DNA from: Tidjanibacter sp.
GTDB lineage: Bacteria; Bacteroidota; Bacteroidia; Bacteroidales; Rikenellaceae
Direction: 5' to 3'
NCBI GenBank assembly: GCA_045639285.1
Contig: JAZUCV010000020.1
Coordinates: 3,936 to 67,935, forward strand
DNA: 64,000 bases
Below the pieces are notes generated by a model. That model did not search any database, was not told the DNA's origin, and saw only the letters and a list, made by a program, of their open reading frames with translations. This document shows positions 3,816 through 41,630 of this stretch, one piece after another. The position numbers and the translations under genes were made by a program. How positions within the stretch are numbered: the stretch's first letter is position 1; every line of letters begins with the position of its first letter.

Positions 3816-4376
3816 TTAGAATCCAACGCCGAGATGCAAACCAATATGCAAATTGGATAACGACACTCCTGCAAAGAGATGAATATTCTCTACAAGTCTA
3901 AGTCTAATACCTGGCTGCACTCCTAATATCGGCCCCATACTTCCGGGCTTAGCAGGCTCTATTTCTGGGTCTATTGCCTTATCTGTTTTATATACTATAC
4001 CCAATCCTGCGTGGAAATCGCTGTAAAGTGAGATTATCTCTCGTGGGCCAAAGTGGAGATATTTGCGAAAATTCGCTGACAAGGTAATAAAATACTCACT
4101 CGGCATAAGAGTAGAGCCCGACTCTGAGATAGTAATGCGACCTCCGAGTGTGCGTTTATTATCCACTCGTACACCACCCGTAACAGCTAAACCACCCTCA
4201 TACGCTCCTACAAAGGCACGGGCTGTGAACTCGGGTTTCCAATGCTGTTTACCCTCTTCGGAGAAGGCATACTTCCACTGTTCTAAATGAGTTGTTGGAC
4301 TTAACTGTGCCTTAGCCTGAGTGCCACACAAGAGCATAAGACACAGACAAACTGTTGTTGCAAAGACTCTCTTCAT
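3816..4376 (-). CDS. Hypothetical outer-membrane beta-barrel protein
   Basis: Signal peptide ending AKA-Q, alternating beta-strand pattern and C-terminal Phe (GLHLGVGF). Confidence 0.65.
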   Translation of the reverse strand: MKRVFATTVCLCLMLLCGTQAKAQLSPTTHLEQWKYAFSEEGKQHWKPEFTARAFVGAYEGGLAVTGGVRVDNKRTLGGRITISESGSTLMPSEYFITLSANFRKYLHFGPREIISLYSDFHAGLGIVYKTDKAIDPEIEPAKPGSMGPILGVQPGIRLRLVENIHLFAGVSLSNLHIGLHLGVGF

Positions 4377-5348: not shown

Positions 5349-5888
5349 TTACTCTATTATAGTTGCCCACTCTTCCAAGTTAACAGAAAAAGGAGGCCGT
5401 TTTTCCAAGCAATATTCTTTTAAGAGTCGCTTCACACGCTCATCTTCCATTTTATCTTCATCGGATTTGGGCACAGCAAACATTACATTCACAAAAATAT
5501 CCTCGCCCATATTTGGATATGTCTTAATACTGTAAAGTACATCTAACGGTATTTCGGTGGTCTCAGAAGCAGAAATCCTGTTAATTATACTATTTAATGT
5601 GTCATTTACAAAGATGTTGGACTCAACTGCGGAATTAACTTCAAACGCCAAAAAGCAAAAACAAGGTTTCTTGTCTGTCAACACATCATCAATTACCTCT
5701 AATAAGTGCTCCAAATAATTATCGTAGGTTACTGCTGCACCATACGAAACAGCCACTTTAAAGGTTGACAATCGCCTCATTGTCTGTATATCGGCATAGT
5801 CAACATAGGTAGGTGCTTCCTCGCCCAAGAAAACGTCTTCTACCATTTTCTCTATCTCAAACCTATCGTTTATAATCCTGCAACTCAT
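5349..5888 (-). CDS. Hypothetical protein resembling an isolated FtsZ C-terminal domain
   Basis: VDYADIQTM resembles VDFADVKTV of the FtsZ in this window. DVLYSIKTYPNMGEDIFVNVMFA resembles TIIWGAGEQTDLDDEIEITIIAT. Confidence 0.5.
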   Translation of the reverse strand: MSCRIINDRFEIEKMVEDVFLGEEAPTYVDYADIQTMRRLSTFKVAVSYGAAVTYDNYLEHLLEVIDDVLTDKKPCFCFLAFEVNSAVESNIFVNDTLNSIINRISASETTEIPLDVLYSIKTYPNMGEDIFVNVMFAVPKSDEDKMEDERVKRLLKEYCLEKRPPFSVNLEEWATIIE

Positions 5889-38033: not shown

Positions 38034-39332
38034 TTGGTAACACTCTGTCAGATAGCACAACTACTCTCCTTCACACCACAGATGGTGGTGTGGTTAGCTA
38101 TAATTGTGGTCTTGCTCTGCATATCGGCCTTGGCCTCAGGCTCAGAAACAGCCTTCTTCTCGCTCTCGCCAGCACAATTGGAGACACTTCGCAGTAAGGA
38201 GTCTGCCAAGTCGAGAGCAGTACTCCAGCTCCTTGACGAGAAGGATTATCTGCTGGCCACAATATTGGTGCTGAACAACTTGGTAAACATCTGTATTGTT
38301 GTACTCTGCAACAATCTGATTGACGCCCTTGTCGAGTTCTACTCCACAGGCTGGGAGTTCGCCATCAAGACCGTGCTTGTAACCTTCCTTCTCCTGCTCT
38401 TCGGAGAGATTATGCCCAAGGTATTTGCCAACTACAACTCCGTACGTCTGGCGACACTGATGGCTGTCCCTCTGGTCGGTATGCGCAAGGTGCTTACACC
38501 GCTAACATTTATCCTCGTAAAATACTCCTCTGGGCTTGCGGAAAAACGAGGGCACAGAGCAGACATATCGGTCGATGAGCTCTCCGATGCGCTCGAGATG
38601 ACAGAGCAGACCGATCAGGAGGAGCGACAGATGCTCACCGGAATTGTGCAACTTGCCAACAGCGAGATTCACGACATTATGCACCCCCGCCTTGACATCA
38701 CCGCCCTGAATATCGAAGAGAAATTCAGCCGTGTGAAAGAGGTCATCATCTCCTCGGGCTACTCCCGCATCCCCGTCTATCGCGAGACGCTCGACAACAT
38801 CGAAGGTGTGCTCTATGTGAAGGATCTCATCCCTTACATCAACCGCGACAACAACTTCGAATGGAACACACTGCTGCGCCCCGCATATTTTGCCCCCGAG
38901 CATAGCAAACTTGGTGATATGTTGGAGGAGTTCCGCAGTCGCAAGGTGCATGTTGCCATCGTGGTCGATGAGTACGGCTCGACAGTGGGTCTTATCACGC
39001 TGGAGGATATCCTAGAGGAGATAGTTGGAGAGATATCCGACGAGAGCGACATCGACGAGAGTTTCTTCCAAAGAGTGGGTGATGGCATATACATCTTTGA
39101 GGGTAAGACACATATTGGCGACCTGGAACGCGTACTATCACTCCCGGAGGGTACTTTTGATGACTGCAAAGGTCAGGCAGAGACAATAGCAGGTATGATG
39201 CTGGAGCGCAAGCGTGAGTTCCTGCGCAAGGGCGACAAGATGACCTTTCACAACATACGTTTCTCGGTAGAGAGTATTGAAGGTCGCAAGGCAGATAAGA
39301 TCAGAGTTGAGCAAACCCAACCTCGTCAGTAG
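38034..39332 (+). CDS. gldE: GldE / hemolysin-family DUF21-CBS-CorC protein
   Basis: SGSETAFFSL, FGEIMPK, YSRIPVY and VVDEYG...TLEDILEEIVGEI. Confidence 0.85.
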   Translation: MVTLCQIAQLLSFTPQMVVWLAIIVVLLCISALASGSETAFFSLSPAQLETLRSKESAKSRAVLQLLDEKDYLLATILVLNNLVNICIVVLCNNLIDALVEFYSTGWEFAIKTVLVTFLLLLFGEIMPKVFANYNSVRLATLMAVPLVGMRKVLTPLTFILVKYSSGLAEKRGHRADISVDELSDALEMTEQTDQEERQMLTGIVQLANSEIHDIMHPRLDITALNIEEKFSRVKEVIISSGYSRIPVYRETLDNIEGVLYVKDLIPYINRDNNFEWNTLLRPAYFAPEHSKLGDMLEEFRSRKVHVAIVVDEYGSTVGLITLEDILEEIVGEISDESDIDESFFQRVGDGIYIFEGKTHIGDLERVLSLPEGTFDDCKGQAETIAGMMLERKREFLRKGDKMTFHNIRFSVESIEGRKADKIRVEQTQPRQ

Positions 39333-39926
39333 GTGAAAATCATAGAGTTTAATAGTTGCAAGGTAGCATTGGTGTCTATCGGTGAGGGTAGCAGAGAGGC
39401 TCTCACCACAGCCGATATTGCCCTTATCGACACCATAAACTCACCCTCACGCAAGGCCGAGCAGACAGCCTGGCGTACTGCCCTGAGGGCACTCATCGGC
39501 TCCGACGAGGAGGTCGTATATCTACTCTCGGGCGCACCCGCACTAACAGGCAGAGGTCAACACATAAGCGTAACACACAACACAAAGTGGGCGGCAGTGG
39601 CAATCAGCAGAGAGAGGTGCGGCATAGACATAGAGCACCTCACACGCAACTTCGACCGCGTAGCCTCACGTTACATATCACCCGAAGAGGGAGAGCTAAG
39701 CGAGAGCAACCACCCGCTATTCAAGCCACTACTATGGTCGGCAAAAGAGGCGATATACAAATTCGTAGCGACAGAGAACATAGATTTCATCAAGGATATC
39801 CGAGTGGTAGCGACCGACATCCCCGCAAACAAGCTATGGGCTGAGTTTCGCAACACACCGCTCCCCGAGATGCAGTTCACCATAATCGACAACAACTCGC
39901 TGCTCTGTATAATCTGCGACAAATAA
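39333..39926 (+). CDS. 4'-phosphopantetheinyl transferase superfamily protein
   Basis: ISVTH, GIDIE and WSAKEAIYK motifs. Confidence 0.85.
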   Translation: MKIIEFNSCKVALVSIGEGSREALTTADIALIDTINSPSRKAEQTAWRTALRALIGSDEEVVYLLSGAPALTGRGQHISVTHNTKWAAVAISRERCGIDIEHLTRNFDRVASRYISPEEGELSESNHPLFKPLLWSAKEAIYKFVATENIDFIKDIRVVATDIPANKLWAEFRNTPLPEMQFTIIDNNSLLCIICDK

Positions 39927-39935
39927 CACACAATA

Positions 39936-40601
39936 ATGGAGGTAAAAATCAACACAGCGTGGAAGTCACTCCTGCAAGAGGAGTTCGACAAGCCCTACTT
40001 CGAGGAGCTGACATCATTCGTCAGGCAAGAGTATGCCACAAAGCGCATATTCCCCGCCGGAAAGAACATATTCCGCGCATTCGATATGTGCCCACCCGAC
40101 AAGGTGAAAGTGGTAATCATAGGCCAAGACCCCTACCACGACGAGGGGCAGGCAAATGGTCTATGCTTCTCCGTGGGCGACGGCATAAAGATACCACCAT
40201 CGCTCGTCAACATATTTAAGGAGGTGGCAGAAGACACCGGAGCCACCATACCCACAACAGGCAACCTCGACAGATGGGCAGAACAAGGAGTGCTACTCCT
40301 CAACTCCGTACTCACAGTAGAGGCACACAAAGCAGCCTCACACGCAGGACGCGGATGGGAACAGTTCACAGACGCCGTGGTGCGCATACTATCCACACAC
40401 CACAACGGCATAGTATACCTCCTATGGGGAAGCTATGCACAACGCAAAGGACTGACAATCGTGCACCCGGAACAAAACCTGGTACTCAAAAGCGCACACC
40501 CCTCACCACTCTCCGTATATCGCGGATTCATAGGCTGCCGACACTTCTCAAAAGCAAACACCTACCTCACAGCACAAGGTAAAGAGCCAATAATCTGGTA
40601 A
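39936..40601 (+). CDS. ung: Uracil-DNA glycosylase (family 1)
   Basis: GQDPYH, PPSLVNI, WAEQGVLLLN, LWG and HPSPLS. Confidence 0.97.
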   Translation: MEVKINTAWKSLLQEEFDKPYFEELTSFVRQEYATKRIFPAGKNIFRAFDMCPPDKVKVVIIGQDPYHDEGQANGLCFSVGDGIKIPPSLVNIFKEVAEDTGATIPTTGNLDRWAEQGVLLLNSVLTVEAHKAASHAGRGWEQFTDAVVRILSTHHNGIVYLLWGSYAQRKGLTIVHPEQNLVLKSAHPSPLSVYRGFIGCRHFSKANTYLTAQGKEPIIW

Positions 40602-40662
40602 TGCTCCCCCGCTTTTTGTGAAAAGCGGTACCAAAAACTTTTGTACTATTAGTTTGAATGGT

Positions 40663-40733
40663 ATCTCCCTAATCTCCCTAATCTTCTTAAACTCCCTACA
40701 CTCCCATTATTCCCTTAACTCTCTCCCCACCCT
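40663..40733. repeat. Degenerate C-rich 9-mer array
   Basis: ATCTCCCTA ATCTCCCTA ATCTTCTTA AACTCCCTA CACTCCCAT TATTCCCTT AACTCTCTC. Confidence 0.75.
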
Positions 40734-40740
40734 AACAAAC

Positions 40741-40772
40741 AACAGCCGAGAGATGATTATCTCTCGGCTGTT
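40741..40772. terminator. Hairpin between convergent genes, probable terminator
   Basis: AACAGCCGAGAGAT-GATT-ATCTCTCGGCTGTT. Confidence 0.75.
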
Positions 40773-40790
40773 GGCTAAGGAGTCTTTATT

Positions 40791-41630
40791 CTACTCAATA
40801 ACACCTTTCTCGCGCATCACATCGCCAAACGAGACAAGTTCTATGCCGTTCTCCTGGATATACTTCATCACCTCTGGGTCGGTGAAGGCGTTGGTAACAT
40901 CCTGGCGGTCGGGGCCAGCAAAGCGTTTCTCGCCACGCGCAGTCACCTCGTAGATACCCTTCATCTCCTCATTGTCGAGCGAGGGGTGCTCAATAGTCCA
41001 ATAGGTCTTGCCCTTCTCCATCTTCTTCAAGGCCTCCAGCAGGCGGGGTGCACGGTTGCCACCGCCAAAGCCCATAGGCAAACTCTCGATGCCAATCTGC
41101 GCATCGTAGTCGCCCTGGCCCTGATATCTGAGGCCATACTCCTCAGCAACACGGATGGCAAGCTCCTTGAACTCGGGGCGCATAGTCCACATACAGTGGT
41201 CAGTGATGTGGGTCACGTTGTCGATATATTTCATAGCCAGCTCTATCTGCGCTCTCATCTCCTTCTCCACATCCTCTAAGGTAGCATTGGGGTTCTGGGT
41301 CTTGCCAATCAGGTAGCCATCCTCATCGCAGAGGGAGGGGCAATCAGTCAATGGTCTCCACTTGAAGCCTGCCCACTCACAGCACAGAGTGATGTGAACA
41401 CCCACATCCAGGCCGGGATGCTCTTTGAGCATATTGGCTGCCTCCATAAACCAGGGGCAAACGCTCATAACCTCAGCCGAGCGACCGATGCCCTCTTCAT
41501 AGCACTGGATAATTGCAAGATTTGTTGCGTGAGTAACACCCAAATCGTCCATACGGACAATCAGTCGCTGCGCCTGTGCAAATTGAACGGCACAGAGAGC
41601 GATAGACAGTGTGAGAAAAAATTTCTTCAT
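40791..41630 (-). CDS. ChbG/HpnK (YdjC) family carbohydrate deacetylase, secreted
   Basis: Signal peptide, RMDDLG, DVGVHITL, EW...WRPL, THITDH and EHP. Confidence 0.85.
   Translation of the reverse strand: MKKFFLTLSIALCAVQFAQAQRLIVRMDDLGVTHATNLAIIQCYEEGIGRSAEVMSVCPWFMEAANMLKEHPGLDVGVHITLCCEWAGFKWRPLTDCPSLCDEDGYLIGKTQNPNATLEDVEKEMRAQIELAMKYIDNVTHITDHCMWTMRPEFKELAIRVAEEYGLRYQGQGDYDAQIGIESLPMGFGGGNRAPRLLEALKKMEKGKTYWTIEHPSLDNEEMKGIYEVTARGEKRFAGPDRQDVTNAFTDPEVMKYIQENGIELVSFGDVMREKGVIE

Follow-up and report, generated by a model that had tools for sequence, protein, structure and literature searches.

A T-poor tract beside ung

Why should a housekeeping gene make almost no use of T at its silent sites? 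The question is posed by ung, the uracil-DNA glycosylase gene (positions 39936-40601, plus strand; NCBIfam match over the cut-off), in a 64,000-nucleotide stretch of Tidjanibacter sp. DNA (the window, G000:C20:3936-67935; the genome, G000, is 80% complete). Only 8 of the 221 ung codons end in T, and ATT, GCT, ACT, CTT, GTT, CGT, CCT, TCT, TTA and TTG do not occur at all. Relative to a lagging-strand, amino-acid-matched baseline, T at third codon positions (T3) was found 8 times against 47.8 expected (observed/expected ratio, O/E, 0.17; Poisson P 1.4e-12), A3 81 times against 30.5 (2.66) and, in the last half of the gene, G3 10 times against 25.8 (0.39); in T3, ung ranks third lowest among 1,089 gene ends. 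The trough begins at ~39,480, inside the upstream sfp-like gene (39333-39926; weak match to the phosphopantetheinyl transferase, PPTase, family). The first 50 codons of this gene are undepleted (12 ending in T, 10.3 expected), only 8 of the other 147 end in T, and its distal part (39484-39926, plus strand) has T3 8/32.4 and A3 45/20.5. A preliminary description of the window had given these codon counts from counting by hand, and a recount returned exactly the same numbers. On the far side, the convergent carbohydrate-deacetylase-like gene (40791-41630, minus strand), which serves as an unaffected control, is ordinary, as had been claimed (T3 0.26, A3 0.09). The evidence set out below supports well the conclusion that the T-poor tract was left by a hairpin repeat dispersed in the genome, which biases one DNA strand over about 1 kb on one side of itself.

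The tract ends at a hairpin with a GC-closed T5/A5 stem (40609-40628; fold z -5.65 for 40590-40800), located 3' of ung and belonging to a truncated copy of a structured repeat of ~200 bp, of which there are 50 copies in G000. These were drawn from 55 motif clusters: 46 copies with the core motif and four head-only copies that end a T-poor segment were kept. The remaining five were dropped, three of them being further head-only copies and two arising from a palindrome matched again on the reverse strand. Keeping the four head-only copies for their effect introduces a small circularity; the profile obtained without ung itself is unchanged. Forty-one copies follow a same-strand gene, five follow an opposite-strand gene and four have no upstream gene. 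The layout runs from the gene-proximal head hairpin or hairpins, with partial tandem copies, through a conserved tail and core and a closing stem that encloses three inner hairpins, and on through C-rich 9-mers to a distal hairpin; the conserved flank of the head hairpin is an A5/T4 motif. In the window copy, the tail and core (40632-40656) are followed directly by degenerate C-rich 9-mer tandem repeats (40665-40736, plus strand; G-rich on the minus strand), a distal module found in most copies, and by a second perfect hairpin (40740-40773), which, from its fold and position, may act as a terminator for the convergent gene. Alignment of copies places the deletion of the three-hairpin body at the 40656/40657 junction, and the orthologous copies in two related genomes, G008 and G021, continue into the body.

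The long arm of the repeat occurs in 75 variants among 109 parsed copies (120 copies in four genomes), and the common variants keep full pairing. On the plus strand the loops read C-TNC-G, TTGC and TAAA/CAAG/TGAA, and on the minus strand cGNAg, GCAA and TTTA/CTTG/TTCA, the latter being stable loops in single-stranded DNA. The minus strand also folds better than the plus strand (-80 versus -71 kcal/mol as RNA, -49 versus -45 kcal/mol as DNA). A search of Rfam with a full-length copy gave no family match, only two sub-threshold miRNA hits. Orthologous copies are 78-82% identical, about the same as random inter-species pairs (77-79%; 6-17 pairs per species pair), while their flanks are 83-90% alike and the nearest paralogous copies 90-94%. 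We therefore conclude that copies are overwritten in place.

The footprint depends on distance and strand

The 1,385 genes of G000, called with our own open reading frame (ORF) model, were scanned for T-poor, A-rich segments. Among the top segments listed, most end at the same non-coding repeat. Copies abut 37 of the 1,089 gene ends overall and 16 of the 20 T-poorest, so that the troughs which the preliminary description proposed to look for at other copies of the hairpin are indeed present. The median T3 O/E was 0.32 for element-abutting gene ends versus 0.99; upstream of the element T3 O/E climbed from 0.36 to 0.94 over 5 kb, genes downstream had no such trend, and element-free terminal genes (n=502) stayed at 0.99-1.03.

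When baselines were matched for replication strand and position in the gene, the 40 adjacent same-strand genes had T3 O/E values of 0.38, 0.54, 0.72 and 0.78 at 0-400, 400-800, 800-1300 and 1300-2000 bp, respectively, and genes further away (400-2000 bp) had values of 0.50, 0.68 and 0.80. At loci with an opposite-strand adjacent gene, T3 O/E read on the element strand was 0.43, 0.32, 0.69 and 0.66 (4-8 genes per bin), and 0.87 and 0.81 in the divergent genes beyond. Opposite-strand neighbours mirror the effect, losing A3 instead, and three of only five such genes fell below the 5th percentile of 622 controls. The strength of the footprint is set by distance from the element only, and all gene-orientation classes agree. 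Because of this dependence on distance alone and of the mirrored effect on opposite-strand genes, we conclude that the footprint acts on the DNA strand, not on the mRNA. The process envisaged in the preliminary description, anchored at the hairpin, directional, strand-specific and blind to gene boundaries, agrees with these genome-wide profiles. The claim that the bias strengthens gradually toward the hairpin held in part: an exponential decay was preferred to a step at 24 of 44 loci, and by 30 log-likelihood units (lnL) in sum, while at the window locus a step at ~39,480 (-lnL 444.7) was better than an exponential (452.2). The decay length is 0.76-1.27 kb, on the upstream side only.

A strand bias of this kind recalls replication, since A/C-rich codon endings also mark the mitochondrial D-loop/H-strand gradient and replication strand skew. 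In lagging-strand genes of G000 the skew is A 1.26, C 1.08, G 0.94 and T 0.84, the same rank order as in the footprint. Unlike that skew, the footprint is local, about three times stronger and not fork-oriented (19 elements in one orientation versus 19 in the other), and the effect of the element is additive with it.

The same profiles bear on transcription. If a leftward promoter within the element gave rise to a short transcript that ends early, the minus strand would be its non-template strand; the polarity would in principle be right, and an untranslated antisense RNA is expected to end within ~1 kb. The decay was unchanged, however, where the leftward transcript is a translated mRNA, and only 13 of 120 copies carry the Bacteroidetes -7 motif (taken as TAnnTTTG) on their minus strand. 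We consider a transcriptional origin improbable.

Relatives with and without the element

Of the 47 genomes of the genus, four contain the exact core motif (G000, G008, G013 and G021; 77-95% complete), and all four display a strong effect; flanks were compared in relatives for most listed copies. Where a copy is present in G021 only, the bias was gained with the element: T3 is lower in G021 for every one of the 24 orthologues (0.240 to 0.073) and A3 is higher for 22 of them (0.110 to 0.236), while 47 background genes went from T3 0.238 to 0.196 in the same comparison. The comparison with element-free orthologues that had been suggested thus came out in favour of the element.

For ung itself, T3 is 0.04, 0.15 and 0.08 in the element-bearing genomes G000, G008 and G021, respectively. 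Two alternatives raised at the outset, a foreign replacement tract brought in by horizontal gene transfer (HGT) and ung-specific selection for a U-poor mRNA, can be judged from these data. The step-like boundary at the window locus would suit a foreign tract, but the ung genes of the three genomes form one clade (100/99) inside the genus. The same pattern is found at ~40 unrelated genes, and orthologues lacking the element do not share this excess of A and shortage of T, which argues against selection on ung. Neither alternative retains any appreciable probability.

In all, at least seven members of the genus show a footprint (the four genomes above and G044, G015 and G012). The last three carry related long elements and a weaker, mirrored footprint: in G044, T is 0.58 on the same strand, and A 0.81, C 0.80 and G 1.23 on the opposite strand; in G015, T 0.73, and A 0.64 and T 1.25; in G012, T 0.80, and A 0.73 and G 1.30. 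For these three genomes, and for G052 and G059, 12-16 sites each were used, covering part of their copies, with baselines that are not position-matched. G052 has a weak footprint. No footprint was seen at the apical hairpin of G059, which lacks the head (16 sites); there, at loci L365-L374, 69-bp tandem repeats sit on the same apical hairpin, headless and footprint-free.

The head motif occurs in 29 of the 47 genomes and in many phyla. Head-only forms left no footprint in G065 (Acidiphilium rubrum, 30 heads), G057 (20) or G063 (34, with few genes close by), and in G064 (13 heads) there was a weak, doubtful signal on small counts. Scans of metagenomes yielded no contig in one case and four short ones in the other, none of which is close to G000, and a scan of viral sequences gave two chance-like matches.

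As a separate observation, the head motif (a T5-G[TA]-A5 hairpin with an A5-C-T4 tail) is multi-copy in many phyla, often as REPIN-like inverted doublets, with 213 matches in G065 and no partner gene found (L073-L196). The heads of G044 are strongly co-oriented along two contigs (most on the plus strand of C25, all six on the minus strand of C21), unlike those of G000.

Substitution spectrum

Substitutions were fitted on a four-genome tree with codon-family preferences, using 23,093 far, 26,745 shared and 17,619 G021-only sites. Read on the element strand, six changes are raised: T>A, T>C, T>G, G>A, G>C and C>A. In a free 12-rate additive fit their rates were 8.1, 7.7, 5.8, 7.4, 3.9 and 6.0, respectively, those of the others 0-0.4, and the decay length was 761 bp. 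At shared loci the six changes are up 2.1- to 4.3-fold at the element, the reverse changes are down to 0.2-0.9 and the decay is ~1 kb; the G008 branch has 0.44 of the intensity. Plus-strand T is lost, as the preliminary description had it, but not T alone: a T-only model was worse than six rates by 320 lnL. Adding dinucleotide-target terms improved the fit by 123 lnL over single-base terms, with no single motif explaining the gain.

The polarity of the changes is that of a new minus strand started at the element. At the ColE1 origin, low-fidelity Pol I leaves T>C, G>A, T>A, C>A and G>C as template-strand markers, with an exponential decay that is half-way at 800 bp; the spectrum reported there has C>T at 140, A>G at 32, A>T at 18 and G>T at 6, and no A>C/T>G bias (PMC3167613). 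Since five of the six raised changes coincide with these markers, the spectrum fits DNA synthesis primed at the element.

Damage to an exposed strand would leave a related signature. If the element kept the minus strand single-stranded, through a D-loop, an R-loop or excision of the plus strand, lesions on the minus strand would be fixed and those on the plus strand erased. In each complementary pair of changes one member is up and one is down, as one-strand erasure predicts, and the minus strand carries G-rich repeats and loops of the type found in single-stranded DNA. Cytosine deamination is, however, expected to dominate on single-stranded DNA, and G>A is not dominant here; a deamination-only model (T>C, G>A) was worse than six rates by 340 lnL and a four-lesion model by 51 lnL. 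We regard such damage as an unlikely cause, although it heads the alternatives to primed synthesis.

Another alternative is that selection or biased gene conversion prefers the bases of the element strand in the order A > C > G > T, extra mutation playing little part; such a preference might, for example, keep the flank unstructured or a strand T/G-rich for a loading protein. We rate this as slightly less likely still. Three fitness terms and a rate term fit the shared loci well, the reverse rates are lowered and the non-synonymous rate (dN) is not raised. On the other side, a non-reversible 12-rate mutation model was ahead of reversible selection with symmetric rate changes by 20 and 36 lnL for three parameters, and the selection fits still require a raised mutation rate. 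Scaled selection of 2-4 per silent site would be needed over 1 kb, on either coding strand and with no evident target, and NucS was not found in any of the five genomes searched.

Proposed mechanism and search for an enzyme

We tentatively favour, with slightly less than even confidence, an explanation in which the element serves time and again as the starting point of minus-strand synthesis, which runs on into the upstream flank and leaves polymerase errors that go uncorrected. That one of the two single-strand processes, primed synthesis or exposed-strand damage, is responsible appears probable. In primed synthesis, the minus strand of the element would fold as single-stranded DNA, and a nick or an RNA primer at the folded strand would provide a 3'-OH directed into the gene. 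From this end a host polymerase, of which Pol I is the first candidate, would copy ~1 kb of the plus strand. T and G wrongly inserted into the new strand would appear as plus-strand T>A/C/G, G>A/C and C>A, and purifying selection would keep the result mostly at silent sites. The trigger might be HUH-type cleavage or an R-loop: HUH cleavage next to a hairpin in single-stranded DNA can generate a 3'-OH from which synthesis is primed (PMC8266576), and R-loops are able to start chromosomal DNA synthesis (PMC11253446).

Several observations weigh against primed synthesis. The window copy lacks the body and yet is among the strongest tracts, with its step-like trough; short copies in G044 act like long ones (T 0.79 versus 0.72), and two long copies in G057 have no footprint at all. 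At shared loci a three-parameter fixation-bias model (lnL -58,759 and -58,700) fits better than the six-rate additive model (-58,780), and the lowered reverse rates (150 lnL) are not predicted by pure added mutation. Amino-acid-changing substitutions are not raised near shared elements (0.0250 versus 0.0256 per codon), and near G021-only elements non-synonymous A>C and C>A changes stand at 60:15, opposite to the silent trend and predicted by neither model. The spectrum is flatter than that of low-fidelity Pol I. Because sites and genomes are not independent, differences in lnL overstate the support throughout. Finally, no nickase was found in protein searches of these genomes. The error-prone resynthesis put forward in the preliminary description therefore keeps its place as a candidate cause, with a fixation-bias model that fits the shared loci about equally and with no enzyme found.

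Protein searches gave the following picture. Reverse transcriptase (RT; RVT_1) was found in 0 of the 4 strong-effect genomes and in 11 of 47 in the genus, relaxase PF03432 in 0 of 4 and in 7 of 47 (MOB_V/Mob_Pre was not searched for), and the Y1 HUH transposase PF01797 in 1 of 47, a genome without the head motif. There was no match to Rep_trans PF02486 in five genomes, nor to Y2_Tnp PF04986 in five, where the control also gave no match, nor to DUF559 in the four strong-effect genomes; their only GIY-YIG match is UvrC-sized, at ~600 aa. A GxxExxY search and a motif screen of G000 proteins revealed no candidate trans factor, and no neighbour protein recurred when the ORFs lying up to 900 bp from a head were clustered. 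The Avd-type four-helix bundle PF05635 was weak in G000 (E 1.6e-4, under the cut-off), marginal in G021 and not found in G008 or G013. Because the genomes are 77-95% complete, these searches do not prove that an enzyme is absent. PolA is present with all its domains, including the 3'-5' exonuclease domain, and a MutL motif match is present. A umuDC-like (Y-family polymerase) match was obtained in G013, G021 and G044, not in G000 or G008; Pol V does not seem to be needed, the G000 branch being active without such a match.

Two side observations concern these families. At L299 and L302, four-helix-bundle genes are inserted between smpB-like and tsaB-like genes and flanked by inverted 7-mer tandem repeats. 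At the syntenic site, G000 lacks the chromosomal umuDC-like pair that G013 and G021 carry (L292, L293; G000:C74:34462), and G044 has two matches of identical score.

Comparison with known systems

By analogy, the element would work like a one-directional mini-origin of the ColE1/Pol I kind, or like a natural EvolvR. With the former it shares a one-sided exponential footprint of ~1 kb and the markers described above; in that system an engineered low-fidelity Pol I acts from one RNA-primed origin on a plasmid and the spectrum is dominated by C>T (PMC3167613). Here, 50 chromosomal sites, natural enzymes and a flat, transversion-rich spectrum are involved, and the primer RNA is only hypothetical. 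EvolvR and TADR are engineered systems of nick-primed, site-anchored error-prone resynthesis of one strand in one direction; unlike these synthetic systems, the present one is natural and comes without an identified nickase or polymerase.

Diversity-generating retroelements (DGRs) also produce base-biased change upstream of a hairpin at the 3' end of a gene, the position taken here by the head hairpin at 40609-40628; their reach is ~100 bp (PMC7826257, PMC5703328) compared with ~1 kb here, where the targets are housekeeping genes and the changes mostly silent. T is lost and not A, which is gained, and G and C change too. No template repeat (TR) is known, no dedicated TR/variable repeat (VR) search having been made, and the ~40 different genes affected are beyond the cover of one TR. 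As no RT, Y1 transposase or relaxase was found, we conclude that the element is not a DGR, in line with the preliminary description, which had set aside a canonical one.

DGR-like retrohoming by an undetected RT, with an antisense RNA copied under adenine mutagenesis or an mRNA primed at the element, is a related proposal. The hairpin 3' of the target is as in DGRs (PMC5703328), and bRT misinserts A most often opposite template A (PMC7826257), which would read as T>A on the cDNA strand. However, the same data put bRT errors at C, G and U at 0.3-1.6%, while here G>A, G>C and C>A match the changes from T; DGR targets lose A on the coding strand, not T; the effect is independent of transcription direction; and the distribution of RVT_1 in the genus is also unfavourable. 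This proposal is very improbable, even more so than a transcriptional origin.

With repetitive extragenic palindromic (REP) sequences, bacterial interspersed mosaic elements (BIMEs) and the REPIN-RAYT system the element shares multi-copy extragenic palindromes after stop codons, modular mosaics and a conserved motif 5' of the hairpin on one strand (PMC8266576). It lacks the GTAG or CGTC foot, element-bearing genomes have no Y1 transposase, the body of ~200 bp is multi-armed, and no flank mutation footprint for REPs turned up in the literature searched. A retron was considered and rejected, there being no RT beside a structured msr-msd and no recurring neighbour protein, as was an oriT or a rolling-circle double-strand origin (dso), whose cognate relaxase or Rep was not found in the searches above. 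By the features tested, the element is neither a DGR nor a REP/RAYT system, a retron or an oriT.

It is a tentative but plausible proposal, held somewhat short of even confidence, that the repeat represents a new class of non-coding bacterial element, a hairpin repeat able to renew itself. Using host enzymes only, it would prime a short one-strand synthesis of its own, the same event rewriting the copy in place and mutagenizing ~1 kb of the upstream gene. If so, it would be a natural, RT-free, multi-site targeted mutator over some 3-5% of the chromosome, while known prokaryotic site-directed mutagenesis needs an encoded enzyme (the DGR RT) or engineering (EvolvR). Codon usage in dozens of housekeeping genes is remodelled by a non-coding repeat, with an effect confined to one strand and to one side, and silent substitution rates are ~2- to 4-fold up in long-shared loci, and more where the element is newly gained. 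If it is mutational, the footprint adds a new cause of local variation in rate, by which inference of codon usage, synonymous rates (dS) and HGT would be misled. It is also a readable record of how transposase-less palindromic repeats are copied and homogenized, an open question for REP-like repeats, and the element offers a direct test of whether replication skew stems from nascent-strand errors. In a literature search that left most subscription journals outside its coverage, no description of such a one-sided kilobase strand footprint beside a repeat was found; a strand code of this kind is without precedent in the literature searched, even if selection were its cause.

Neighbouring genes and other observations

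The gene order at the window locus is ftsZ-gldE-PPTase-like-ung. The gldE gene (38034-39332, plus strand; NCBIfam match over the cut-off) lies at most at the edge of the footprint: its 3' end (39000-39332), previously described as intermediate, is A-enriched (A3 24/14.1) but not T-depleted (T3 25/24.0).

Several copies of the repeat stand directly after DNA repair or replication genes, ung included, on G000 contigs C2, C8, C12, C20 and C72 and in the region of G021 loci L036 and L245; the other genes of this kind are, judging by their N-termini, presumably recN, mutS, rarA, yraN, recO and polA. At G000:C53:25257-26300, a gene that we take to be ruvA-like is strongly T-poor (O/E 0.27) without a head hairpin. 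It is followed by inverted 9-mer repeats and a ~70-bp tandem repeat of another kind; the site may have lost its copy or may hold a second active element. Elsewhere in the window, two ORFs with low GC at third positions (3816-4337 and 5349-5888; A3 0.26-0.28, C3 0.16-0.18) are probably foreign.

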